From Lytechinus pictus (Eukaryota): a stretch of 64,000 nt of DNA. Position numbers and translations under genes: made by a program. Shown here piece by piece: positions 17,697 through 49,196 of this stretch; the stretch's first letter is position 1; each line of letters opens with the position of its first letter. Below the pieces are notes generated by a model. It was not told where the DNA came from and searched no databases. It was given only the letters and a program-made list of their open reading frames with translations. The DNA lies in NCBI RefSeq assembly GCF_037042905.1, contig NC_087250.1:11906001-11970000 (forward strand), read 5' to 3'.

Positions 17697-20600
17697 AGGC
17701 GGATCCACTAGGGCCCCCCCCCCCCCTATTGGCGGAGCAAAAAAAAGGAAAAAAAGGGAAAGAAAGAAAAAAAAGGAAAAAAAGGTAAGAGAGAGGAGAA
17801 AAAAGAGGGGGAAACATAAGAGGAAGAAGACGAGTGAATAAAATAAGATGGGGGGGAAGACTTGGAAAATGATTAAGAAAATCTTTCATGTCACTAAAAT
17901 TTTCGCCCGCGCTTCGCGCTCGCACTGGCTTTTAGGTGATTTACATATCTTGTTCAATATGAAGTTTAAATATCAAGTTTGGAAGTCAATATACAAACAT
18001 ATTTCATCTCAGAAATCGAACTTTCATTATTTTGTGTGACTTTCAAATTGATTTTTAAAAAGGGCTCTGTAAAAAAAAATCAGTTTTATGGTCTGAATAT
18101 TAAAATTTTCTGCTCGCGCTGCGCGCTCGCAAATTTTGATTTATCAGGTACCTATTATTTTCTTGTATTCCAAAAAGTTTTTAAAATATTCCTTTTCAGG
18201 TCTGATTGTCAAAACGTATCAGCTAGCGCTGCACGCTCGCATTTTGATTGGCGAGTTATGTATGTCTCAATATTGATTATACAACAAACTACTTAAAATC
18301 CCCTTTTCATGACAGTGTATAAAATATTTAGGCTCGCAATTTGCGCTCGCATTAATGGTTAATAATATATTAACTGATGCATCCTAGTTATAATTACAAA
18401 AGTGCTTGAAATGTCAAGTTTTCAGGCCATCATATCATCAGATTTCGCGCCCTCATTAGGTATTAATGAATAAGATATTCATTTAATAATTGATCTTTTT
18501 TTTTTCATCTTGCGCTTAACAAGAGGAATAGGAAGACAGTCTTCATTTTCATATTATGTCCTAAGGATGTGCCGGTACGTCCTATGTCAAAACTCAAAGT
18601 AATAATAATGAAAATATGAGCTCTTAATTAAGTGCGATCCATATCCACCTCACAATTTTCCTACAAAATTAAGTGCTTGAAATATAGAGCTGAAATTGAC
18701 TCTTTTTTAGATCGGATTATCAAATAGTTTAAGCTCGCGCTCGCTTGATTTTCACGATAAAAGATGTATAGAATGGCTATATTCTATATAGGTCTAAATA
18801 TGACACACGCGCGCGCATGTTTATTCGATACTCAACTTGTTCTCTATTCAAATCATTATCCAGTTTCAGATCACAATATCAAATTTTCTGCTCGCGCTTT
18901 GTGCTCGCATTATTAATGTAGAAAGATCCCCTATTACTCATTCTTTTTATGATATACAAAACATGAATAGAGTGTCCCGTTTTTAGGTCTAAATTTCGAA
19001 AAAAAAATCGCTCGCGCTTCACGCTCGCATCAATTGTTCAGTTATAAAGCTATCTTGTTTACGATTATAAAATTTGATAAAAAAATTATATTCATTATGT
19101 CGAAATAACAATTTTTTCAGCTCGCGCTTCGCGCTCGCATTATTTGATTGCTGAAATATGTAACGTCTTCATGGCTAAGTGGCAGTCCTTAACAGGTACC
19201 TTTTCGATCAGTTCAAAACGCATATGGACATTTTCTGCTCGCGCTTTGCGCTCGCATTATTAATGTAAAGAAGATCCCCAATTACTCATCCTTTTAATGA
19301 TTCACAAAGTATGAATAGAGTGTCTCGTTCAAGTAGGTCTAAATCTCGAAATTTTCCGCTCGCGCTTCGCGCTCGCATCAATCTTTACTATTATGACAAA
19401 AATGTACCTTTGACAAAAATCAAACCTGGTAAAAATAAGAATAAACAACCATGGATCACCCAAGGTATAATTCAATCAATATTCACCCGTAATCGATTAT
19501 ATAAGATATCGCTTAAATCACCAACTCTAGGACATTTAAATAAATACAAGAAATACCGTAATAAATTAACCTCAATAATTCGATTGGCTCGAAGATCGAA
19601 CTTTTCTAATAAAATTGAAATAAATAAGGATAATAACAAAACATTGTGGCATACAGTAAATGAAATGTTAAATAAAAATACGCGTGATTTTAACAATGTT
19701 GAGTTCCTTTTAAACGGGCATAAAACGCAAGACCCTTCAGAAATTGCTAAAGCATTTAATTCTTTTTTTACCAATGTTGGTCCTAATCTTGCATCTAAAA
19801 TTGCAACTAATGCCAATGATTTTTCTACATATTTAGGTAATCATGCCGAACATTCTTTATTTTTTATCCCTACCAATACTCATGAAATCATAGAAATTGT
19901 TCGGTCTTTTAAATCTACTCAATCCAGTGGCCATGACGGTATCAGTGTATGTTTACTTAAAGAAATAATTCATTATTTAGCTTCTCCGCTTTCATATATT
20001 TTCAATTTATCTCTCTCAAATGGAATTTTTCCGGATCAACTAAAAATTGAAAAAATAATTCCTATTTACAAAAAAGAAGACCCTTGCCAAATATCTAACT
20101 ACCGTCCCATTTCATTATTACCCAGTATATCCAAAATACTTGAAAAAATTGTTTACAAACGATTGTACTCTTTTCTGGATACAAATAAATTATTAATCTC
20201 AAATCAATATGGCTTTAGGAAAAATCATTCAACTGACTATGCAATTTTACAATTACATGATCAAATAATAGATTCACTTTCTAAAAATGAACACACCGTT
20301 GGGGTCTTTATGGATCTATCGAAGGCATTCGATACTATGGATCACCATATTCTTTTGTGTAAATTAAAGACTTACGGAATCAGAGGTATTGTTTTATCAT
20401 GGTTTAATGATTATTTATCCAACAGACGTCAGTATGTTAATTTTCATTATAAATCATCCCAAGTTTGTACCGTTAAGTGTGGGGTACCACAGGGCTCCAT
20501 CCTAGGCCCTTTGTTATTTTTAATTTATATGAATGATATAATTAATGCATCACCTCTACTTACCTATGTTCTCTTTGCAGATGACACTAATGTATTTTAT

Positions 20601-22095
20601 TCTCACAAAAACTTAGACATACTTGAAACAATACTTAATCACGAATTAGATAAATTTTCTATGTGGTTTAAATCAAACAAACTCTCCTTAAACATTAACA
20701 AAACAAATTTCATATACTTTAAACACCTTAATTCTAAACATACATTTCGTGGTTCCATTCAAATTAATAACATCAGTCTCATTGAAAAACAAGAGACTAA
20801 ATTTTTAGGGGTAATAATCGATTCTAATTTAACTTGGAACAGCCACATTCATAATGTTAGCACACTAGTTGCCAGAGGTATTGGTATATTATATAAACTC
20901 AAATATTGTCTTTCCCAAAGATCACTATTTATGTTGTACAATTCTTTTATTTTATCACATATTTCATATTGCAATATATTGTGGGGTAATAGCAATAAAA
21001 CAAAAATAGATTCAATTCTGCGCCTTCAAAAAAAGGCACTCCGTATTTGCACCCATTCGCAATATTTAGCTCACTCTGATCCCATTTTTCGGAAACTCAA
21101 AACGTTGAAAATAAACGATATCCATACTTTACAATCTGCCATTTTTATGTACAAATTCTCAACCAATGCTATACCTACATCCTTTCAAAACATGTTTACC
21201 TACAATAGCGACATTCATTCATATCCTACACGTCACTCATCAGACTTTCATTTGACAAACCCGAAAATAATTTTAGCACAGAAAACAATTAGACACCACG
21301 GCCCAGATATATGAAACAACATACCAAATCATATTAAACTCACTGCATCTGTCTTTTCTTTTAAAGCTTCATTGAAAAAATATATTTTATCCAGATATTC
21401 ATAAATCTCTCACCTGCACTTGCACCCACTAGCACTCACTAGCACACACTTCATTTGTCAATTTCTACTTTTTTCCCCGTTATTTGATGATTCGTGACAT
21501 TAATTTTTTTTTCTTACAGACACAATTAATTTCTTAGGTTTCCATGTAGCCCTTCCCTTTTTTGGCTGCTATGCTTCAAGCATATATTTGCTTATATAGT
21601 TTGCCTCTGCATTTTACTTATTATATATATTTTTTATATATTGTATTTATGTCTTTCTCCAGTCACTACATATAAGATTGTCACTTGGTTATGTACTTTA
21701 TGCTATATTATGATTATGTCTCAAGCATTGTAAATTTGTTTTGTATATATTCCAATAAATGCAGAAAATCCTGCAAAAAAAAATTGTTTAGTTATATACA
21801 TATTTTGTTTAAGTTACAAAAAGTGCTTAGAATTTCCATTCTTTTGATAAAAATGTCATAAATTTCATCTCTCGCTTCGCGCTGGCATTATTTGATTTTG
21901 TAAATATTTATAACGTCTTCATGGCTAACAGCATGCAGTCTTTAACAGGTACATTTTCCATCAGTTCATTTTCTGCTCGCGCTTCGTGTTCGTAGTAATT
22001 ATTTAGTTGCATACACATCTTTATCAGGATAACAAACATTGCCCAGAATGTTCAAATTTAAGGAAAAAATACATAAGATTTCCAAAAAATTTGAT
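17697..22095. mobile_element. Non-autonomous DNA element with CTCGCGCTTCGCGCTCGC sub-repeats (copy 2, interrupted by a LINE)
   Basis: Begins TAGGCGGATCCA; collinear with 90-1974; the repeat unit GCATCA|ATTGTTTAGTTATA is split by the LINE. Confidence 0.7.
19383..21782 (+). mobile_element. 5'-truncated CR1/L2-group (Crack-like) LINE, RT region
   Basis: PWIT, NYRPISLL, QYGFR, DLSKAFD, GVPQGSILGP, FADD, KFLGV motifs; no endonuclease. TGA at 21312 replaces the conserved Trp (GPDI*NNIP) and the frame continues to about 21404. AATAAA near 21754 and an A-tail. Confidence 0.9.
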
Positions 22096-28815: not shown

Positions 28816-29695
28816 CCAGTTTGGAATCAAACCGATGCTGTTTTAATACTAATTGGTGTTGTTTAAACACATATCTGGTGTTGGACCAAACGAAACTGGT
28901 GTTGTTTAACACGTCTCTGGTGTGGACATATATAGATTCTGGGCTGGTGTTAAAACAATACCAGAGTGTTTGCAGTGCAGGTGCGCACCTCCCAGACACA
29001 ACCAAATATTATTCACTCCACAGTTTTTGCTTTTTCACAATAGACATTTATTGCAACTAAACGGGGACGGATTCAAGAAAACTGTTAAAGGGGAATAAAA
29101 CCTTTGGAACAAGTAGGCTTGTGTTGAAACAGAAAAATCAAAAAATAAGATAAAAGAAAGTTTGAGAAAATCGGACAAATAATGAGAAAGTTACGAGCAT
29201 TTGAATATAATTGCAATGGAGATCCTCCCATTGGCAATGCGACAAGGATGTGTGATGTCACATGTGAACAACTTTCCCTTTGATGGACTATAAAATACCC
29301 TCAAAATGTATCTTTTTTGCTTTTTCTTATGGTGATACAAACTCTTTATCCATGATGTATTCTTTAAAAATCTGTATTACATGCCCTCCTATAGAAAGAA
29401 CACATGATCTACTGATAGATGTGATATTAGAGGCAATTAAGTGAAATATATACTAAAGTAATGGGGAGAGTTGTTCACAAGTGACATCACACATATTTGT
29501 CGCATTGCCAATGGTAGGATCTCCATAGCATTAGTGATTACAATAGTAGTTAATGGATAGACCTCATACCAATTTTGGTGACCTTTGACCTTTGACCCAT
29601 GACCTTTGACCCCAACTTCCGGTCACTGTTGACCCCGTGACCCCACCTTCCGGTCAATCATGACCTTTGACCTTTGGGTACGCGGTAAACAGGAA

Positions 29696-30080
29696 ATTGG
29701 ATAATGGAGCGCGGGAAGCGATTTTAATTGGATAATGGAGCGCGGGACGCGAATTTAATTGGATAATGGAGCGCGGGACGCGATTTTAATTGGATAATGA
29801 AGCGCGGGACGCGATTTTAATTGGATAATGACTCCGCGTGGGGACGCCATCTTAATTGGATAATGACTCCGCGTGGGGACGCCATCTTAATTGGATAATG
29901 ACTCCGCGTGGGGACGCCATCTTAATTGGATAATGAAACGCGGGACGCGATTTTAATTGGATAATGACTCCGCGTGGGGACGCCACGCTTCAACCCGGAA
30001 ATGATGGGGGTGAATCTTAAAGAAAGAGTAAAAAGCAGCGCGTGCTATAAAACCCGCCAACTTGGACACCCGGCGCATTC
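29696..30080 (+). promoter_or_regulatory. Predicted promoter in Polinton left arm: 9x ATTGG repeat array, TATA box, Inr (mirrored at about 31770-32155 on minus)
   Basis: Nine ATTGGATAATG copies spaced 31 or 35 bp, with GCGCGGGA motifs; TATAAAA at 30046-30052; GCATTC about 30 bp downstream. Confidence 0.55.
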
Positions 30081-30138
30081 TGGACCTCGGACTAACCAGA
30101 ACAGCTCTGCCGCAGGAACACCAATTTATCTACATGCC

Positions 30139-30282
30139 ATGTTGATAACCGTGTGGATGTTGTTTGCGCTTTGGAGAGAGCCGTACATAGGTTTTGAATT
30201 TTGGAGGAACTGGGAGAAAGTGTGGGAAGCGTATGAAGAGGAAAGGAAGAAAGGTATTTGCCGGTCCAAAGGTGAATCATGA
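30139..30282 (+). CDS. Putative 47-aa Trp-rich Polinton microprotein (mirror copy 31567-31710, minus)
   Basis: First long ATG-ORF after the TATA/Inr: MLITVWMLFALWREPYIGFEFWRNWEKVWEAYEEERKKGICRSKGES; no homology recognised. Confidence 0.3.
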   Translation: MLITVWMLFALWREPYIGFEFWRNWEKVWEAYEEERKKGICRSKGES

Positions 30283-30500
30283 GTCAAACGCAGTGGAGCA
30301 TCGAGGACGAAGCCATGCTTCGTCTCCTTCTGGAGCGAAGGAGGAGAGCAACGGAGCGGCAAAGGCAGGCCAGAGCAGAGGTGGTGGAGAGGATGCGGGA
30401 AGAGAACATCGAGGATGAAGAACGGGACGCGAGGTCTGATATGGACGCGATGGAGGGTCATTCCAACGTGGATGAACATATTTTCCTTGAGATTATATGA
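30279..30500 (+). CDS. Putative 73-aa charged helical Polinton protein
   Basis: ATCATGA start overlaps the upstream stop (ATGA); Arg/Glu-rich, purine-rich; stop lies just before the 10-bp array. Confidence 0.45.
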   Translation: MSQTQWSIEDEAMLRLLLERRRRATERQRQARAEVVERMREENIEDEERDARSDMDAMEGHSNVDEHIFLEII

Positions 30501-30511
30501 AAGCATTGATT

Positions 30512-30888
30512 AATCCGTAAACATCCGTAAGAATCCGTAAGAATCCGTAAACATCCGTAAGAATCCGTAAAAAATCCGTAAGAATCCGTAAAAAATCCGT
30601 AAGAATCCGTAAACATCCGTAAGAATCCGTAAAAAATCCGTAAGAATGAGTAAGAATGAGTAAACATCCGTAAGAATCCGTAAGAATGAGTAAGAATCCG
30701 TAAGAATGAGTAAACATCCGTAAGAATGAGTAAGAATCCGTAAGAATCCGTAAACATCCGTAAGAATCCGTAAACATCCGTAAGAATCCGTAAAAAATCC
30801 GTAAGAATGAGTAAGAATGAGTAAACATCCGTAAGAATCCGTAAGAATGAGTAAGAATCCGTAAGAATGCGTAAAAATCCGTAAGAAT
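30512..30888. repeat. 10-bp tandem array (GAATCCGTAA / ACATCCGTAA / GAATGAGTAA); shorter mirror at about 31149-31337
   Basis: Read directly; the mirror lacks 188 bp at the junction TCTTACG|ACGGAT near 31207. Confidence 0.95.
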
Positions 30889-30981
30889 CAAAGTACCTTC
30901 GCGCGCGTTTCATGATTACGTATAATTACAAGTTTGAACGTTAATTTTCTTCATTTCCCAACAAATAATCATCGAGTCAGC

Positions 30982-31068
30982 ATGAATATATTGGATATGT
31001 CCAACCGTTACGCTTGTTCACGATGCGATAAAACTTTTAGTAGGAAATATAACATGCTGACTCGATGA
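30982..31068 (+). pseudogene. Truncated C2H2 zinc-finger ORF spanning the palindrome spacer
   Basis: MNILDMSNRYACSRCDKTFSRKYNMLTR*: Y-x-C-x2-C-x3-F-x5-M, cut before the His pair where the right arm starts. TATAATT at 30921 and TCATTT at 30951 lie upstream. Confidence 0.7.
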
Positions 31069-31348
31069 TTATTTGTTGGGAAATGAAGAAAATTAACGTT
31101 CAAACTTGTAATTATACGTAATCATGAAACGCGCGCGAAGGTACTTTGATTCTTACGGATTTTTACGCATTCTTACGGATTCTTACTCATTCTTACGGAT
31201 TCTTACGACGGATTTTTTACGGATTCTTACGGATGTTTACGGATTCTTACGGATTTTTTACGGATTCTTACGGATTTTTTACGGATTCTTACGGATGTTT
31301 ACGGATTCTTACGGATTCTTACGGATGTTTACGGATTAATCAATGCTT

Positions 31349-31570
31349 TCATATAATCTCAAGGAAAATATGTTCATCCACGTTGGAATGACCCTCCATC
31401 GCGTCCATATCAGACCTCGCGTCCCGTTCTTCATCCTCGATGTTCTCTTCCCGCATCCTCTCCACCACCTCTGCTCTGGCCTGCCTTTGCCGCTCCGTTG
31501 CTCTCCTCCTTCGCTCCAGAAGGAGACGAAGCATGGCTTCGTCCTCGATGCTCCACTGCGTTTGACTCAT
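31349..31570 (-). CDS. Mirror copy of the 73-aa ORF in the right arm
   Basis: Identical translation in the ORF track. Confidence 0.45.
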   Translation of the reverse strand: MSQTQWSIEDEAMLRLLLERRRRATERQRQARAEVVERMREENIEDEERDARSDMDAMEGHSNVDEHIFLEII

Positions 31571-33402
31571 GATTCACCTTTGGACCGGCAAATACCTTTC
31601 TTCCTTTCCTCTTCATACGCTTCCCACACTTTCTCCCAGTTCCTCCAAAATTCAAAACCTATGTACGGCTCTCTCCAAAGCGCAAACAACATCCACACGG
31701 TTATCAACATGGCATGTAGATAAATTGGTGTTCCTGCGGCAGAGCTGTTCTGGTTAGTCCGAGGTCCAGAATGCGCCGGGTGTCCAAGTTGGCGGGTTTT
31801 ATAGCACGCGCTGCTTTTTACTCTTTCTTTAAGATTCACCCCCATCATTTCCGGGTTGAAGCGTGGCGTCCCCACGCGGAGTCATTATCCAATTAAAATC
31901 GCGTCCCGCGTTTCATTATCCAATTAAGATGGCGTCCCCACGCGGAGTCATTATCCAATTAAGATGGCGTCCCCACGCGGAGTCATTATCCAATTAAGAT
32001 GGCGTCCCCACGCGGAGTCATTATCCAATTAAAATCGCGTCCCGCGCTTCATTATCCAATTAAAATCGCGTCCCGCGCTCCATTATCCAATTAAAATCGC
32101 GTCCCGCGCTCCATTATCCAATTAAAATCGCTTCCCGCGCTCCATTATCCAATTTCCTGTTTACCGCGTACCCAAAGGTCAAAGGTCATGATTGACCGGA
32201 AGGTGGGGTCACGGGGTCAACAGTGACCGGAAGTTGGGGTCAAAGGTCATGGGTCAAAGGTCAAAGGTCACCAAAATTGGTATGAGGTCTATCCATTAAC
32301 TACTTACAATATTCAAATGCTCATAACTTTCTCATTATTTGTCCGATTTTTCTCAAACTTTTGTTGATCTGTTTCTTCGATTTTTCTGTTTTCATACAAG
32401 CTATCTTGTGCCAAAGGTTTCATTCTCCTTTCATATATCACAAATGCCCTTCAAGCGACAATGAACAACTGGAAGGCCTTTGTCGAAAATTGCTGAACCA
32501 GAATGACAGTTCCTTACTATGTTTAGGAGCGGACGAAAAATTGCAAATACGTTTTTTGTCTACGGCGGTGGAGGACGAAACTTTGCATTTGCAATACTTT
32601 AACATCCCAGTTGCAGATGCAAAAAACACTCTCTATTGTGGAAAGAAAAAAGGAGTTGGAGTAAATAATATTTGATTGTGTCTGGGTCGGTGTGCGCGAG
32701 AGTGTGTTTGGGTGGGTTTGGTAAACGTTTGTGTCTTCTGAGCCGACTTAACCATCTACATGTCCACATATTTATCTTGATAGATTTAAACTTTAACATC
32801 TGTGTAAGTCTGACAAATACTAATGAATATTAAACACATGGCAAGGAAAACACCAAAATACAACTGTTACGTTTGTAGCATAAATATATGAAATAAACAA
32901 GTTACGTACGATTTGGGAGATGTGTGTTTAAAATCAAATAATAATCAGTCAATACTAAACAAGGCAAATACAGTTTTGAAAAAAATGTATTATCAATGTT
33001 TTTTTCCGATATCAGTTTGTTGGAATGTAACAACTATGTTATGTGTAGATTTTAATAACTTGTACGATGGGTTTATTCACATGAAAGAAACAAAGTGAAT
33101 AGCTATTAAGAATAAAAGACAGTAGTCGCAGCAAACAATTATTTCATGAGAAAGTCTTTTAAATCAAGGTTAATTGTCAAAATATTATCATACACCTATA
33201 TCTGGTACATTGATATAAACTCATCTTTGTAAAATCAAGAGCATAGGCTTTATTTTTAAATAAAGATAAAAGTCAAATGTGACCTCTGCTAACCTCGTTT
33301 TTAGAGGTCAATGACCTTAAGGTCAACGACCTTAAAATATCCGAAAATATATGTTTTTCATCATTAGTTCATAATAAATATGGTTATAATGAAAAAAATG
33401 AT

Positions 33403-39748: not shown

Positions 39749-42700
39749 TTACACTCGCGACAATGTGTCTGCAATAATGTTGTCTTTTCCCGGTAGATGT
39801 CTAATGTTCAAGTTGTACTCTTGGAGCAGTAGACTCCACCTTGTAAGTCTTTGATTTTTGTTTTTCATCTTACTTAGAAACGTCAAAGGATTATGATCTG
39901 TCCATATGTCCAATGCATGTTGAGATCCACTCACATACACTTCAAAGTGTTGCAGTGCAAAGATTAACGCCAAAGTTTCCTTCTCCACAGTGGAATAATT
40001 TCTCTGACTGCTCGAAAACTTCCTTGAGAAGAACGATATGGGCCTGTCTGTTCCCTGTTCATCTTTCTGCGTAAGAACAGCTCCGGCACCCACATCACTA
40101 GCGTCAACCATCAGAGAGAATGGCTGACTAAAATCTGGAGCCACCAGTACAGGATTGGTAGATAGGAGTGCTTTCACCTTGTCAAAAGCACTCTGACAGT
40201 CACTGGACCAGATGAACTTCACCTCCTTGCGTAGTAGATTGGTCAGCGGGGCGACGACATCAGAGAAGTTATGGCAGAATCGTCTGTAGTAGCCTGCCAT
40301 GCCAAGAAACCTCATCAGTCCCTTCCGGTTGGTTGGAGTCGGGAACGCCAGAATAGCTTCTACCTTCGCTGAGAGTGGTCGAACATGACCTGAACCAACA
40401 ACGTGACCCAAGAAACTAACAGTAGCACCTCCAAACTCACTCTTTGCCAAGTTGACTGTCAATTTGGCATCAGACAATCTCCTGAACAAATCTCTAATTC
40501 TTTGTACATGAACTTCCCAATCTTCACTATACACAATCAAGTCATCTATGTAAGCTTCACAGCCTTCAAGACGAGAGACAAGACTATTCACAAGTCTTTG
40601 GAATGTAGCCGGCGCGTTTTTCATACCGAATAGCATCACAGTGTACTGGAATAGGCCTTGGTGTGTAGCAAATGCAGAGATTTCTTGCGCTCTCTTAGTC
40701 AACGGAATCTGCCAATAGCCTTTAAGCAGATCAAATTTGCTCACATACTTCGCCTTTCCTATACGGTCAATACAGTCATCTACGCGCGGTATCGGGAAAG
40801 AATCGGTCTTTGTACTCGAATTGACTTTTCTGTAGTCAGTACAGAAACGATATGACTTATCCGGTTTCGGAACTAAGATGCATGGTGACGACCATGCGCT
40901 GCTACTTGGCTCGATGATGCCATTCTGCAGCATGTACTCTATTTCTTTTTCAAGATTCTTCTTCTTTACTGGGTTAACACGATAAGGCGCCTGCTTGATT
41001 GGGGCGGTATCTCCCACATCAACATCATGTTCAACAACATCAATACGAGATGGGATATCTGCAAATAACTGCGGATACTCATTCAACAGCTCTTTCACAT
41101 CCCTCCTCTCCTTCTCAGACAAGTGGGTTAGTTTGTCATTGATGTGTCTTAGAACTTCTGAATTTTTCAATTTCACACATGGTTCATCTCTCTCAATGTT
41201 ACACATCTCTTCACTTTCATCATTCAGCTCAGATTCTACAGCACTCAACACTGGTTGTGCTCTCTTTTCATCATCTCTTCGAACATAAGCTTTTATCATA
41301 TTCACATGACATACACGCTTTCTCTTTCTTCTATCTGGAGTTTTGACGACATAGTCAACATCACCAACTTTCTTCAGAATGGTATACGGTCCAGTAAATC
41401 TAGCCTGCAAAGCATTACCAACTACTGGTAACAAAACCAAAACCTCATCACCTGCCTTGAAATTCCTTTCCTTGGACTTCTTGTCATACCAAGACTTCAT
41501 TTTCTCCTGAGAATCAGACAAATTCTTCTTAGCAACTTCACAAGCACGATGCAATCTCTCACGGAAAGACGATACATAGTCCAACATATTCACATCTTCC
41601 TCATCTGACAACAACCTTTCACTCAACAACCTGAGGGGTCCACGAACTTCATGTCCATACACGAGCTGAAATGGGCTGAAACCAAGAGATTCTTGAACAG
41701 ATTCTCTCAAAGCAAATAGCAACAATGGAATTCCCTCATCCCATTGTTTCTCTGTCTCCAAACAATATGTTTTGAGCATGTTCTTGAGTGTCTTATGACA
41801 TCTCTCAAGTGCTCCTTGCGATTCAGGATGGTATGCACTAGAAACTACATGTTCAATCCCTAACTGCCTGAGCACTTGCTTAAAGACTTTCGACATAAAG
41901 TTTGATCCTTGATCAGACTGAACGGTACGCGGTAATCCTACAGTCGTGGAAAACTTGATCAGCGCCTTGCTCACATTGTTTGCGGTGATGCGTCTAAGTG
42001 GAATCGCTTCGACATACCTGTTACTTGCGCACATAATGGTAAACAGGAATTCATTACCTGCTTTTGTCCTCGGAAGCGGACCTACGCAATCTATGATAAT
42101 TCTTGCAAACGGTTCATCGAACGCTGGCACTGGTTTTAATGGCGCGACTGGTATTTTCTGATTCGGTTTACCAACTACCTGACATACATGACAATTTCTG
42201 CAATAGTTTGCAACATCCTTTTGTAAACCTGGCCAAAAGAAATGAGAAAGGATTTCCAAACTTCATCAGCAGGAACATCTATCGGCCTCCACTTTCTCAT
42301 CAAAACACCTGACTTCGTATAATAACAAACAGGCACGGTCAATGCCTCCTCCTCAGAGATCGCTCTCTCAAACATGGATACTAACTGAGGATCTTTTTGT
42401 TGCTCCTCCAACAACTTACTCTTACTTATCGGCATTGGTTCACATTTATTTTTCTCTTCTGTACGTTGAGTTTCTCCTGCACCCTCATTCACATTTGATT
42501 CACATTCATCATCAACCAAACGACAAAAGAAATAATCTCCCAAGTTAACCTCATCTAGCTCACTAGACTTCGATTCAGACTCTACTTTCTTTGCCATCGA
42601 ACGAGTTACAGCACAAGACGGAAACACAGTAGGAAATTCTGCAACCAACTGCTCTGTTTCACTACTCTCACACGGAATATCACACAACTGGACATGGCAC
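39749..42700 (-). pseudogene. pol: Pol: integrase, then RT, then RNase H; two lesions
   Basis: CRNCHVCQ, DCVGP, SDQGSNF, YHPESQGALER, GPY; FDLLKGYWQ, YIDD; DAS, EKE, TDH. Frameshift near 42685; the His-His half of the integrase HHCC motif is missing near 42255. Confidence 0.9.
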
Positions 42701-44194
42701 AACTTTATCACCAGCAAGATCATTCCCTAAAATGATGGAAACATCTGCCATCGGAAGTGATGGTCTCACAGCTATTTTCACACTGCCAGAAACAAGGTCT
42801 GATTTCAAGTCTACCACATGAAGGGGTGCTTTTACAAAGCCATCTCCTATTCCTTGGAGCAAAACACTAGTTCCAACACAAGATTTCTCACCAAAAGGCA
42901 ACACACTCTCCAAAATCAAAGACTGAGAAGAACCAGTATCACGCAACACTTTCACTTTTCTTGCTTCGACACTACCAGCTAGGGAAACATATCCTACAGA
43001 AACAAACGGTTCATATTGCTTTTTCACTTTCTCTAAGTTAACTGGCTCAATCCTACTCTCTGAACTTAGCAAATTATTCACAAATGCATTTGGATGTGCA
43101 TTACTTGATTCACTTGTTTCTCCTTTAAGTGTAGGACACTTTGCTTTAAAATGACCAACCTTGTGACATGCATAGCATTTCTTTTCTTGCTCGTCATCTT
43201 TAGATTGTGATTTTACTTCTTTCTTGTTGTGTGCTGAAGCACCATTTTTGTTTTTGTTTTTCCACTTTCCAGATTTGTTTGTCTCATCTGATTTTTTGTT
43301 TGTGATTTTGTGCGTTAGCGCATAATCATCTGCAAGCTTCGCTGCTTCATTAAGCGTTCCTATTTGCTGCTCTTCAAGATGCAACCTAGCATCGAAATGC
43401 ACACTACGCTTAAACTCTTCGAGAAGAATTATTTCTCTAAGCTTATCAAAGCTATCTGCATGGAGTGACGAACTCCATCTATCAAACAACTGTTGTTTGC
43501 GCCTAGCAAACTCAAGATGAGTTTCGGTCTCATCTTTGCGCGTTTTCCGAAATTGTTGACGATACGCATCCGGTACAAGCTCATAAGCACGCAACACTGC
43601 TGCTTTAACAACGTCATAACGACCCGCATCATCAACTGACAAAGCTGAATAAGCATCTCGAGCTTTACCCTTCAACTGAGATCGTAACAAGTGTGACCAT
43701 TTTTCTTGCGGCCAACTCAAACTAACAGCTACCTTTTCAAAGTGAAGGAAATATTTCTCTATCTCCTCCCCCTCCTGAAAAACGGGAACCATTCGAACAT
43801 GTTTCGCAACATCAAAATCAGACTTTACTTGCCTAATTTCTTCTCGTTCTCTAGCATTCTCATGCCCCCTTCTCAAAACTACTTGTTCTCGTTCAAGTTC
43901 AACTTTCGCTATCTCTAGTTCCAACTCTTTCAAACGCAATTTCTCTGTCAAGTCCACATTCACAGACTCAATCTGAACCTTAGATAAAGCTTCAAGTGGC
44001 AGAACATCTTCCTCTTCCACTAACCACTGAATTACAGCTTTCAGAATTTCTAATTTACGCCAAGTATTCCTTACCTCAGCAACCTGGTAATGATGAGCAA
44101 TCTCCAAGAGATGAACCTTCTTCAGAACCAGCAACTTCTCAACACTGGGAGAATCAACGAAATCATCCAAAGAAAATTCCGCCATGGTCAACAA
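42680..44194 (-). CDS. gag: Gag (capsid/SCAN-like, CCHC knuckle) fused to aspartic protease
   Basis: YFLHFEKVA..W..W; LEEFK...AAKLADDY; CYACHKVGHFKAKC; LRDTGSSQS; ILGND. Ends at a frameshift. Confidence 0.88.
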   Translation of the reverse strand: MLTMAEFSLDDFVDSPSVEKLLVLKKVHLLEIAHHYQVAEVRNTWRKLEILKAVIQWLVEEEDVLPLEALSKVQIESVNVDLTEKLRLKELELEIAKVELEREQVVLRRGHENAREREEIRQVKSDFDVAKHVRMVPVFQEGEEIEKYFLHFEKVAVSLSWPQEKWSHLLRSQLKGKARDAYSALSVDDAGRYDVVKAAVLRAYELVPDAYRQQFRKTRKDETETHLEFARRKQQLFDRWSSSLHADSFDKLREIILLEEFKRSVHFDARLHLEEQQIGTLNEAAKLADDYALTHKITNKKSDETNKSGKWKNKNKNGASAHNKKEVKSQSKDDEQEKKCYACHKVGHFKAKCPTLKGETSESSNAHPNAFVNNLLSSESRIEPVNLEKVKKQYEPFVSVGYVSLAGSVEARKVKVLRDTGSSQSLILESVLPFGEKSCVGTSVLLQGIGDGFVKAPLHVVDLKSDLVSGSVKIAVRPSLPMADVSIILGNDLAGDKVVPCPVV

Positions 44195-45414
44195 AAGACC
44201 CCTAATCTTTAACGCTGAAAAGACTAGAAACAGCTAAAGAAAACCTTTAATTCTTAGCCAAGACAATAACCAATATGGTTATCACAGTTGAAAATTATAT
44301 CAATAACATAAGAAAATGTCAACCTGACCTGGCTGACCCTGTATATATGACCTCAACCTACAGAAACGGTAACCTGACTCGGTCACCCCAGTTGAAAATT
44401 TTTCCAACCACACTGTCAACTTGACTCCAGTCGACACTGTCAGTTCCCATCAACCGACACAGCAACAACAAAAAAATGGTTAACCAGTTGAAATATCATC
44501 AACCCAAATTTCATTCAACACTACGTGAACTAAACACATCGCACAGCAAGACACACTGAAATACATGGAATTGCCTCATGGGACAAACAGCACGCCATAC
44601 TCTACCGTGTGCGCCACCACACAGCGTCATACACAACACACTGACAGCGATATCCACACACTGGCATTACATCTACGTGTACACACACCCATGCAAATGT
44701 CTAATGACAATCCTCACGTTGAATACGATTGCACAATACATGTACGTTCATGCGACTTTGCCGCGCCGGCATTATACGGTATACGGAACTTCGATACAAC
44801 TTACGCCGAGAGTTCTGGTTCGACTCTCACCAAGCCCCCACTGTTACGCGGGGGAATTGACTCCGGACATGCCCCCACTGTTACGTTTGCTGGTCCGGAC
44901 AAGCTCTTCCTATGACCTGTCTTGGACAAACTCCTACGTAAACCTCCTGAATCCTGTTTTCCATTCAGACAATCATGAACTAGAAAACAAGCCACGCTGT
45001 GTCAAATCGTTTAAAACACAGTTTATTTACAAAATGTACACATGACGATTCAGATTCACAAGTCCGTTGTTCACATAGCGATATATCCTTTTTCTAATCT
45101 TCTCTCCAGACCCAAAACACATATTATTATCTCGTCACATCACTCAATTCATCTCAGCAGAAAAGGTGCGTGAACATGATTCACAAGGAGATTCAGAGAG
45201 TGACGAAGAGTTTGAAGATGCTGATACGCGTGAAGATGAGGAGCAAGAGTACTCCGATATGTCAGCAGATTCCCCCAAACTACCGAAGGATGGGAAAAAG
45301 TTCGCCAAGGGTAAGCGGAAACAAAAAATCAGGAGCAAACCAGCCAAAAAGAAATAGGAAGCTGCTTCCGATTTCTGACAATAACAGAGTGTAAATAGTG
45401 TAAATAAATCACCT

Positions 45415-48400
45415 ATGCCAGGAATAAAAAACAAATACTGCAACTTGATTAGTTTGAATGTTAGAGGTATCAGAAGTAAAGAAAAAAGAGACACAATCCT
45501 GTTATGGAGCAAGCATCAGAAAACAGACATATTGTTATTACAAGAAACTTATTGGACAGATAATATTTTGAAAATCATTCGAAATGAATGGAAAGGGCAA
45601 GTTTTTTGTTCAAATGGATCTAATCATGCCAGAGGAGTCGCCATTCTTATTTCAAAAGATTTACCAATAACTTTCAATAACATAATTTATGGTCAAGAAG
45701 GACGGATGATTATGTTAAATAGTATGATTAGTAATTGTAATCTATGTATAGTAAATATTTATGCACCCACAGAAAAGAAATACAGAGAACGATTCTTCAA
45801 AAAGCTTTATAGGTGGATCGAGTCGAACAGACCTCTAGATAGCGAGTTAGTAATAGGTGGAGACTTTCATTCCATCCTCTCCCCAACTAAAGACGTAAAA
45901 AGAAATCCGAATACTTATTATAAGACACCACACAATCTTAAAGCTATTATCAAACATTTTGATTTATGTGATATATGGAGACGTTTTAATCCAAACAAAC
46001 GACAGTTTACTTGGAGAAATGTATCTTTAGATTTGGCATCACGCCTTGATTATTGGCTGGTAAATAAGAATCTGAAAGCAAAAATAATGATGTGTGATAT
46101 ACGTCCATCTGTACGTTGTGACCACAACGCTATTTTTTTAAGGTGTTGATAGGTAAAGTGGAGAAAGGTCCAGGATTCTGGAAATTAAATACGCATATTC
46201 TGAAAGATGATGTGTATAAAAGTAAAGTAAGAAAAATTATTAGAAACATTGAAAATATGAATCTTAGTTTCTCTGAAAGATGGGAACTTACAAAGATTAG
46301 ATGTCGTGAATTTACACAAACATACTGTATTGGAAAGAAGCATAAATCAAAAGAATCAAAGACAAGCTTAGAAGAAAGATTTGCTAAGATAACTAGGAAA
46401 ATTGATGAACAAGGTAACATTGATGATGTGACTAGAAAAGAGTACCTCTGTATTAAAAGTGATTTAGATAGACTGTATAAAAGATATTGTAAAGCAGCAA
46501 GTATACGAGCTAGAATCAAATGGCTAGAAAAGGGCGAAAAAAATACAAAATATTTTCTGAGTCTAGAAAAGAAAAACGCCCAGAAAAGAAATATAACTAA
46601 AATACGAAAAGATAATAAGATTATTACGAAACGAGTACAGATTCTAAATGAGGTTGTTTCTTTTTACAAAGAACTATACGCCAGTAAACATATACGAAAA
46701 GAAGATATTGAAAGATATTTTGTAGGTTCCGTTGTAAATAAGTTATATGAAACAGACAAAGAAAAATGTGAAGGACTGTTAACATATTCAGAATGTCGAA
46801 TTGATGCTTTTAAGATGAGCAAAAACAAAAGTCCGGGAGCAGACGGTTTACCCGTCGAATTCTTTTTCGAGTTTTGGGACGATATTTAATTTATGTTGGT
46901 CAATGCTCTAAATGAAAATTGTAGTAATAAGGTTATGTCAAAAACCCAACGGTTAGGAATTATTACGTTGATTCACAAAAAAGGACAGATTGAAGATTTG
47001 AATAACTGGAGGCCAATAACCTTGTTAAATTACGACTACAAAATAATGGCGGCTGCCTTATCAAACAGGTTACATAAAGTGTTATCAAAACTTGTTCATG
47101 AAAATCAGGTAGGTTACATAAAAAACAGAATGAGTGGTTTTAATATTAGACTTACGCAAGATGTTTTTGATTATATGAAAAAGTACAATTTAGAAGGTGC
47201 CTTAATGTTAGTTGACTTTCGGAAGGCATTCGACTCCGTGGAATTTGATTTTATTGAAAGCTGTTTGAGTCATTTTAATTTCGGCGAAGACTTCCGATGT
47301 TGGGTTAAATTAATGTATGAAAAAGTGGAGAGTTCGATACTAATCAATGGTTGGAGAACGCAAACATTTCAGATCTGTAGATAGAGGCATAAGACAAGGC
47401 TGCCCCCTATCGGCAATGTTGTTTATCTTGGTGGTAGAAACCCTAGCAGAAAGAATCAGAAGAAATGACAAAATTAAAGGAATTCTATTTGGACACAACA
47501 AAAGAACAGAATTAAAAATCTTACAATATGCAGACGATACATCTGTGTTTTTGAGAGAGAAATCGTCTATGCAATATATTATGGAAGAATTAGATAAATT
47601 TGGACATGTGGCCGGGCCGGTTGTTAATAAAGACAAAACAATGCTGAAATGGTTAGGCTCTACGGAAACTTATTGGAATTTTGATAAATATGGTTTGAAG
47701 TGGACGAAAGGTTGTATTAAATATTTAGGAGTTCATATAGACCATGACCTAGATAAGGTTGTGAAATTGAACTGGGAAACCAAATTACAAAAGATACAGA
47801 GAATCCTGGACAATTGGAGGAAAAGAGATCTCACAATTATAGGAAGAGTCCTTATCATCAAGACTCTACTTGTAAGTCAAATAATTCATTTAATTATGTT
47901 TTGTCCAGTTCCTCACCAGATAGTAAAGAAACTGGAGAATATAATTTACCATTTTTTATGGAACGCGAAAGTTGACAAAGTTAAGAGAATGACAATTGTA
48001 AAGGAATATGAGGATGGTGGTATTAGAATGATCGACATTCAGAAATTAATACAGAGTTTCAGATTGAAATGGTTGGCGAGAATAGTTGACGATACAAGTG
48101 GTTATTGGACAGATTTTGCTTTATTGAATTTGGAATCAGTAGGGGGTGTCAGACTAGTTCTTAACCGTACTATGGATAATCACAGATAGAAAAATGGTTT
48201 GTTAACAAATTGCCAAAATTTTATGTTGAGATTATAAAATCATGGTCACACTTGAAAGAATCCACAAAAAAGATGATTTGTTATCGAACACACAGATTCT
48301 ATGGTATAATAAATATATTGTATATCATAATCAACCATTTTTCTATAGAGATTGGTACGCTAGCAAAATAATTTTTCTGAAAGATATTTGTATCGAAGGA

Positions 48401-49196
48401 AAATTTGTATCTCTTACGAAACTGAAAGAATATTTTGAATCCGAGAAAACAAAAGCAAGAGCCCTGTTTGATTATTCTAAACTACAAAGGGCGATACCGA
48501 AAAATATGGTTGAATGATTTAACAGATGGTATTACGTTGGACATTCCAAAAATACCACTGAAGGGAAAAGACAAACAACTTAGGTTCTGTTCCAGCAAGC
48601 TATTTTACCACATTTTATTAACACATGACAAAACAAACGACGCTCCTACATATTGGGCTGACTTTGCCGATAGTCCTATAAATTGGAAGAATGTCTTTCA
48701 GAGAAATTTGAAAAATATAGGGGAAAACAAATTGAAACAATTCAATTTAAAATTGTTGTATAACTTAATTCCTACGAAGAGGATGTTGTTTTTATGGCAA
48801 TTGGACAATGATGATAAATGTGAAGTTTGTAATATCAAAGAAGATTTAATTCATGCTTTTTTGTATTGTAGTTTGAATATGCATTTCTTTTATAATTTAT
48901 TCATAATGATCAAAAATGTGTATGATGTAGACCTTTGTTTTCATGTCGATATTTTGTTGAAAAATTACAAAGAAAAGAAGATTGATGATATTATAACAAT
49001 AGCACTTTGGAGTATTTATAAGATGTTAATTTTTAGAAACTTACATAGAAAAGAAGAAAGAGAAAATAAATTATGGTTTACTTTTGTCAGAGAATTGAAA
49101 TTAAGATTAGATATCAATAAGATCATGAAGATTCTGAGGAAAAGAAGAAAGAAAGAAATGTATAATTTGCCTGTTGCTTTGGAAATGTATCTATGA
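45415..49196 (+). pseudogene. L1/Tx1 ORF2 (APE endonuclease, RT, C-terminal zinc motif), disrupted
   Basis: SLNVRG, LQET, NIYAP, GGDF, SRLDY, DH; KSPGADG, WRPITLLN, DFRKAFD, RQGCPLS, YADD, KYLG; CEVC..EDLIHAFLYC. Several frameshifts plus an in-frame stop at 46887. Confidence 0.92.

Follow-up and report, generated by a model that had tools for sequence, protein, structure and literature searches.

A palindromic element with the ends of a Polinton (or Maverick) transposon was found in a 64,000-nucleotide stretch of the genome of the sea urchin Lytechinus pictus (contig NC_087250.1, positions 11,906,001 to 11,970,000 of the forward strand; G000:C6:11906001-11970000 in the numbering used here). 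We refer to this whole stretch as the window and to the element, which occupies window positions 29545-32304, as the mini element. As judged from its sequence, the mini element appears to be a non-autonomous, chimeric derivative of a resident Polinton. Both of its arms correspond to one and the same end of the parent, and its inner part to a second family, i.e., palindromic foldback elements that carry a zinc-finger gene. On balance, we favor an origin as a snap-back defective replication product that was integrated once. Searches were carried out in an 812-Mb assembly of 368 contigs, and the best 40 candidates were scored for each query; the words unique and single-copy refer to the candidates scored.

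The mini element is 2,760 bp long. On the left, flanking sequence ending in GTGATTACAAT is followed by its 5' end, AGTAGTTAATGG; on the right, its 3' end, CCATTAACTACT, is followed by TACAATATTC. The end motif, AGTAGT/ACTACT, is the (AGT)2//(ACT)2 motif of Mavericks, and the element is flanked on both sides by TACAAT (29539-29544 and 32305-32310), a target-site duplication (TSD) of the Polinton type, 6 bp in length. The left arm (29545-30984, plus strand, 1,440 bp) pairs with the right arm (31053-32304, minus strand, 1,252 bp), which is its reverse complement, except for 188 bp and one mismatch. The outer parts, 29545-30641 and 32304-31208, pair over 1,097 bp with a single mismatch (A at 29753, T at 32096), and the inner parts, 30830-30984 and 31207-31053, pair over 155 bp with none. 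The 188 bp at 30642-30829, which lie within a 10-bp tandem array, are unmatched in the right arm. At the center, 68 bp (30985-31052) are unpaired, and this fold, designated J2, is closed by GCATG at 30980-30984, which pairs with CATGC at 31053-31057. Arm divergence amounts to one substitution per approximately 1,250 bp. The original prediction, which had been made from the letters alone, described the size, ends, duplication, arms, central 68 bp, single substitution and 188-bp gap of this palindrome, and all of its figures were confirmed. The terminal 19-mer occurs twice in the window, where 0.02 occurrences are expected by chance, and long terminal inverted repeats (TIRs; tens to ~1,500 bp) are present in an extreme form, as the arms themselves.

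No open reading frame (ORF) of the mini element exceeds 155 aa, and the longer ones are located in the 10-bp array. ORFs of 73 and 93 aa have no Pfam match. Inspection of the ORF listing and Pfam searches revealed no pPolB, integrase or ATPase gene in the mini element, which is therefore not an autonomous Polinton; without genes for replication, integration and capsid, it would need a helper. The element had been called gene-less, and with regard to pPolB, integrase and ATPase this description stands, but it goes too far for the arms. Each arm retains two promoters (a TATA promoter and the promoter of the zinc-finger gene), a 73-aa exon remnant and the first 25 codons of the zinc-finger ORF, present as a 28-aa stump. 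These remnants are not likely to function.

The Polinton from which such arms could be derived is present in the genome. The terminal 200 bp of the mini element had 152 matches (best 40 of 158 candidates scored), and a search with the pPolB profile PF03175 yielded 36 matches, one of which is separated by 3.4 kb from a lone terminus on C17. At this C17 locus, C17:12792967-12809161, we found a full-length Polinton of 16.2 kb with the ends AGTAGTTAGGGG...CCCCTAACTACT, a TSD of ATCATG and TIRs of ~300 bp. Its minus-strand ORFs code for an rve integrase (E value 1e-10), a Pox_A32-type ATPase (2.6e-8) and DNA_pol_B_2 (1e-17 and 1e-15, in two ORFs). The (AGT)2 ends and the 6-bp length of the TSD of the mini element are thus also those of an element that codes for pPolB, an rve integrase and an A32-type ATPase. 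A full-length Polinton with these ends, of the kind that had been sought, exists, termini of this type do flank pPolB and integrase genes, and the earlier assignment of the mini element to Polinton derivatives was borne out. The pPolB of the C17 Polinton is spread over three overlapping or adjacent ORFs. In addition, its left end (C17:12792967-12800568; L053 and L054) contains a 3.8-kb tandem duplication, 99.8% identical, with a second terminus inside the element; this duplication may be genuine or may reflect a problem of the assembly. On C6 (21.77 Mb), two termini 26 kb apart were also considered as the ends of a full-length parent and were rejected; the locus consists of two or three foldback copies and other DNA, with no Polinton genes.

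The first 917 bp of the mini element are colinear with the pPolB-side end of the C17 Polinton (~90% identity), extending past its ~300-bp TIR, and the opposite end of this Polinton has only the first ~308 bp in common with the mini element. A segment specific to the pPolB-side end, designated region A, occupies 29990-30479 on the plus strand of the left arm. Within it, positions 29998-30461 differ from C21:5805576-5806038 by 5 mismatches in 464 (99% identity); region A is 97% identical to C6:1315749-1316211 and 87% identical to the C17 copy. In all three Polinton copies that have region A (C17, C21 and C6), it is located 2.8-4 kb from pPolB and on the same strand. The mini element is self-complementary over its whole length, with both arms representing the pPolB-side end of one parent. 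Because the same Polinton end occurs twice, it is not a simple internal deletion, which would have left two different ends. The original prediction had raised the alternative of a full element that collapsed in place. This proposal does not agree with the arms, since each of them is the pPolB-side end and is linked to another family through the same chimeric junction; no simple deletion explains such a structure.

At this chimeric junction, J1 (30455-30461, plus strand), Polinton sequence overlaps by 7 bp, GGGTCAT, with the leader of the foldback-family center: Polinton copies match up to 30461 and foldback centers from 30455. A query across J1 (30405-30512) had a full-span match in the two arms of the mini element only (40 of 65 candidates scored). 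Likewise, a query across the J2 center (30885-31152) had a full match at the mini locus only (40 of 149 candidates scored), and other copies match just the first 176 bases of this query and then continue into the zinc-finger ORF. A search for the same junction at several loci, suggested as a sign that the mini form itself transposes, thus found both diagnostic junctions at a single locus. The junction overlaps measure 7 nt at J1 and 5 nt at J2. Since both arms carry J1, this junction either is older than the fold or was formed together with it, and as the mini element is single-copy in the assembly, only one integration is in evidence. In the foldback leader, ~33 bp still show an older, imperfect homology with region A at its end, and the J1 crossover accordingly falls in a patch of ancient homology. 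An ancestral asymmetric parent, in which region A would be joined to the leader, was considered and dropped because none was found in the J1 search; among the candidates scored, J1 occurs at full length in the mini element only.

The family that contributed the inner part consists of palindromes in its own right. Pairs of termini located 4.6-5.8 kb apart proved to be whole-length palindromes in 8 of 8 copies fetched (4,599-5,753 bp). All eight have (AGT)2 ends and perfect 6-bp TSDs, each different from the others (AACACT, TGTGAC, CATGTC, TGGCGT, TAGGAG, CATGAG, ACACAG and TATATT), and their arms differ by 2-22 substitutions over 2.2-2.8 kb. Each half contains a terminus and 31-bp repeats, variable filler, an outward-reading ORF of 210-216 aa, the leader of this ORF and a 10-bp array. 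A single ~60-bp "leader" forms the center and is followed by the mirror image, giving two zinc-finger gene copies per element. The resemblance of the mini element to this family is close. Its 10-bp array (AATCCGTAAG) is the center of every foldback copy compared, its 93-bp zinc-finger leader is 100% identical to that of six foldback copies (L031, L033 and L035-L038), and the first 30 nt of its terminal domain are those of the ends of foldback copy L038, the terminal domain being 92-97% identical to that of the other copies.

The zinc-finger ORF codes for a protein with one N-terminal C2H2 finger (Pfam E value 2e-5, at the cut-off). Four diverged subfamilies retain the ORF intact, with dN/dS values of 0.34-0.44 in 5 of 6 pairwise comparisons and 0.71 in the closest pair, all calculated from only 8-24 substitutions per pair. 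Relatives of the protein in other public assemblies are 44-72% identical, and a protein atlas search with it returned generic C2H2 clusters only. In a six-frame search of the genome, in which the best 150 of 299 candidates were scored, ~120 matches were of the foldback type, mostly paired inverted copies, and the family probably includes at least 60 elements. For all 150 matches scored, the distance to any of the 36 pPolB matches is more than 20 kb, and on this basis the zinc-finger gene was rejected as a Polinton gene and assigned to the palindromic family. No transposase ORF was detected in any foldback copy examined. The propagating parasite ("satellite"-like) is this 4.6-5.8-kb foldback family, which was not visible to the original prediction; propagation of the mini element has no support from its junctions, both single-copy.

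Several additional observations were made on the foldback family. The length of region A in the outer arms varies by copy (72, 184, 216, 305, 344 and 388 bp, and ~472 bp in a C7 copy; L032 and L066 are among these copies), which suggests that the family and the helper ends have exchanged sequence repeatedly or that region A was deleted in steps. At C17:8134560-8181441 (L021-L030), truncated foldback units form a head-to-tail array of ~47 kb with a period of ~4.1 kb. Each unit is composed of a terminus, filler, an inverted pair of zinc-finger genes and filler, followed directly by the next terminus. The array, which includes at least 20 zinc-finger ORFs, has the appearance of a transposon on its way to becoming a satellite. 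Finally, L070 (C4:16280785-16282660) and L071 (C5:45622578-45624360) are palindromes of ~1.8 kb that represent a second zinc-finger subfamily (P0003 type, 70% identical) and fold inside the ORF, with arm ends reading ..CCAGTAGATGGCACTAGC.. and no clean 6-bp duplication. A spreading snap-back variant with a fold in the zinc-finger ORF had been considered for three loci, and this idea was rejected; the two that were fetched, L070 and L071, share a 99.6%-identical flank of more than 2 kb and are segmental duplicates.

From the outside inwards, the left arm of the mini element starts with a terminal domain (29545-29694, plus strand) that includes the (AGT)2 end, TGACCTT 7-mers at 29579-29611, and two 31-bp units at 29607-29665 containing CCGGAAG. 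The segment at 29579-29672 and its mirror at 32177-32270 each contain the word GGTCAAAGGTCA four times (the AGGTCA half-site, directly repeated with a spacing of 1) and the word CCGGAAG twice. We take these words, by likeness, as candidate nuclear-receptor DR1 (direct repeat, spacing 1) and ETS binding sites. Host-factor sites beside a protein-primed origin would parallel the ends of adenoviruses. Next to the terminal domain are tandem repeats of 31/35 bp (8.4 and 6.3 copies; 29695-29985, plus strand) that are common to the Polinton TIR. Region A follows, with a TATAAAA box at 30046-30052 and, partly within it, the 73-aa ORF (30279-30500). In the C21 Polinton copy, this ORF continues to a splice-donor-like CGAG/GTAAGC, and it therefore resembles a Polinton gene's first exon, of which the mini element would keep a remnant. 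Beyond J1, the 10-bp array has 37.4 copies in the left arm (30512-30889, plus strand), and its right-arm counterpart has 18.4 copies (31148-31337). The promoter and 5' leader of the zinc-finger gene (30890-30981, plus strand) contain a TATAAT-like word at ~30921 and are followed by the first 25 codons of the 216-aa C2H2 zinc-finger ORF (MNILDMSNRYACSRCDKTFSRKYNM; 30982-31056, plus strand). The frame then runs into the fold and ends after 28 aa, and the histidines of the finger are missing from this stump.

The mini element splits a high-copy host repeat of ~520 bp (29154-29544 and 32311-32436). This repeat gave 1,999 first-look candidates genome-wide, reaches contig depths in the thousands, has inverted repeats of its own, and is probably a MITE (a miniature transposable element with inverted repeats). 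Uninterrupted paralogues in the same assembly contain one TACAAT (L069) or CACAAT (L068) at the matching point. In addition, contigs from three public runs join 29540 to 32307, skipping 2,766 bases, i.e., the 2,760 bp of the element and 6 bp of duplication. The boundaries of the insertion are exact. An allelic empty site was considered on the basis of these joints and of L068 and L069, and was dropped; because the flanks are a high-copy repeat, the sites are paralogous and not allelic. The surroundings of the mini element are rich in transposons, with window ORFs at 19269-21314, 39749-44233 and 45385-49196. The transposon ORFs of the window code for a non-LTR (long terminal repeat) reverse transcriptase, a Gypsy-type pol (reverse transcriptase, RNase H and integrase) with a SCAN-like gag, and an L1-like endonuclease/reverse transcriptase.

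In the origin that we favor, protein-primed, strand-displacing extrachromosomal replication would start at the pPolB-side end of a Polinton. The growing strand would switch template at GGGTCAT onto a co-replicating foldback element and would copy the foldback leader, the 10-bp array, the zinc-finger promoter and 25 codons. Its 3' end would then snap back, with CATGC annealing to GCATG 68 nt upstream, and its extension would proceed up to the 5' end of the same strand. In a second round of copying, again initiated at the end, this hairpin would be converted to a 2.76-kb linear duplex with two identical Polinton ends, and the Polinton integrase would insert the duplex, creating the 6-bp duplication. 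That palindromes with Polinton-type ends integrate routinely is seen in the eight foldback copies. The repeated end motifs of Mavericks have been tied to the jumping-back step of protein-primed replication, which they are expected to serve, and an (AGT)2 or (AG)3 end motif with perfect 6-bp TSDs has been reported for these elements (PMC8097293, in part). Snap-back defective genomes, in turn, have been defined as whole-length palindromes that result from reverse-complementary copying (PMC13506859, in part).

Several points weigh against this origin. Microhomology-mediated repair, or template switching at a chromosomal fork, could also leave overlaps of 5-7 nt, and with its ~33 bp of older homology J1 could be a product of homeologous recombination between chromosomal copies. 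The mini element is single-copy, with no second insertion that would prove a free palindromic molecule. To our knowledge, extrachromosomal replication of Polintons is unproven in any animal. Among short-read contigs of four runs, none bridges the fold or the boundary between flank and terminus, and parts of the arms are uncovered. The single X1 contig over 30840-31057 continues into the zinc-finger ORF and consequently comes from a foldback copy rather than from the mini element, and contig cover says nothing either way on the palindrome.

The junction overlaps would also be compatible with rearrangement in place, the main alternative, which we regard as rather unlikely. According to this explanation, a foldback-type or asymmetric Polinton-ended element was inserted here, with duplication of TACAAT, and host replication or repair then overwrote one of its sides with the other in inverted form. 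This could occur through fork stalling with template switching or through repair of a hairpin-capped break, with a return to the original template inside the terminal repeats, which are identical. Host processes of this kind typically leave microhomologies such as those of 7 and 5 nt at J1 and J2, both long palindromes and tandem arrays are fragile structures, and the family is rich in variants, including the asymmetric L059 and L060 and outer arms with 72-388 bp of region A. The single-copy state of the mini element is likewise in line with an event at one locus. However, at least two switches would be needed, and these would have to restore both termini and the duplication exactly. Moreover, J1 links to a foldback center the Polinton-specific positions 389-472 of region A, which are absent from the listed foldback copies except for the 87%-identical C7 type, and a second element would thus be needed as a donor anyway. 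The eight relatives also show that ready-made palindromes integrate.

An assembly artefact, in which the insertion is real but the assembler compressed its interior (e.g., a normal ~5-kb foldback copy) or joined it wrongly at the tandem arrays and inverted repeats, appears improbable. Palindromes containing tandem arrays are hard to assemble, the fold is bridged by no contig, and the odd 3.8-kb internal duplication in the C17 Polinton may be an assembly problem itself. Yet J1 and J2 are located in unique sequence outside the arrays. The presence of J1 in both arms, which differ by one substitution and one array length, resembles two real copies and not one folded read. In addition, the mini element is short enough for single long reads to span it, provided that long reads were used for the assembly. 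The least probable explanation is that the mini element belongs to the classical foldback transposons, with an unrelated cut-and-paste transposase (Mutator- or P-like) responsible for its movement and a merely secondary likeness to Polinton ends. Long, internally repetitive inverted repeats with a short middle are a foldback hallmark, and foldback elements of a sea urchin are on record (Liebermann 1983, cited in PMC4079207; the latter in part). Against this explanation, the TSD measures 6 bp in 9 of 9 elements, the mini element among them, compared with 7-10 bp in Mutator and P foldbacks (same source); the ends carry the (AGT)2 motif of Mavericks; colinearity with an element that has pPolB and integrase extends over 917 bp; and the copies examined contain no transposase ORF.

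Taken together with the foldback family, a snap-back origin of the mini element would fit a broader, more tentative proposal, i.e., that an animal Polinton, in the sea urchin genome, may have a satellite lineage. Its members would be whole-length palindromic mini-genomes with helper ends that replicate, as hairpins or as linear palindromes, on the protein-primed polymerase of the helper and have a zinc-finger gene of their own, whose product possibly binds the adjacent 10-bp array; the mini element would be a helper-satellite recombinant snap-back captured in the germline. Self-copying of Polintons/Mavericks has so far been a model and not an observation. The palindrome shows the marks expected of a strand-switching, end-initiated polymerase: arms from one end, microhomology junctions and a clean 6-bp insertion. 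If this broader proposal is correct, the mini element would be the first genomic trace of extrachromosomal, strand-displacing Polinton replication that spawns defective genomes, as in adenoviruses. The puzzle of the sea urchin "foldback element" would then be tied to a virus-like helper, and a tractable animal helper-satellite pair would be available. In the literature searched, we came across no account of Polinton derivatives that are palindromic over their whole length, or of foldback families with Polinton ends, although an earlier annotation in Repbase or in the founding 2006 paper is possible.

With Polintons/Mavericks, the mini element shares the 6-bp TSD, the (AGT)2//(ACT)2 ends, terminal inverted repeats, and 917 bp colinear with the pPolB-side end of the resident element. 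It differs in size (2.76 kb, compared with 12.7-24.6 kb for intact vertebrate Mavericks; PMC8097293, in part) and in the lack of core genes. Its "TIR" is the whole element, and its inner third is derived from another family. Its membership in this class is that of a non-autonomous derivative only. Tlr1 elements have sometimes been named non-autonomous Polintons (PMC5499653, in part), and for a lizard, a passage of PMC3014272 notes an "apparent absence of nonautonomous copies".

Foldback transposons, such as Drosophila FB, Galileo, Tetris and sea urchin TU, have very long inverted repeats built from tandem repeats, a small middle and many rearranged forms, and this architecture of long, internally repetitive inverted repeats around a short middle is also that of the mini element. 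Satellite-like amplification is a further similarity, with the array at C17:8.13-8.18 Mb corresponding to that of Tetris (PMC4079207, in part). In contrast, classical foldbacks have TSDs of 7-10 bp and belong to the Mutator or P superfamily (same source), whereas the mini element and the eight foldback copies have 6 bp and Polinton ends. MITEs and other non-autonomous DNA transposons that arise by microhomology-mediated deletion are similar in that they keep the cis-acting ends, lose the enzymes and have breakpoints at short overlaps; the mini element differs in having been made by inverted duplication rather than internal deletion, and in being single-copy.

Incomplete particles of adenoviruses contain inverted duplications of one genome end. 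Snap-back or copy-back defective viral genomes resemble the mini element in being whole-length palindromes built from one genome end, which turn in a short unpaired stretch and do not code for replication functions (PMC13506859, in part). Unlike the mini element, which is integrated in the germline with a TSD and is a helper-satellite chimera, they are free molecules in infected cells, mostly of RNA viruses. The mini element is one defective copy, and the way in which it is built, together with the foldback family, bears directly on the replication of Polintons.

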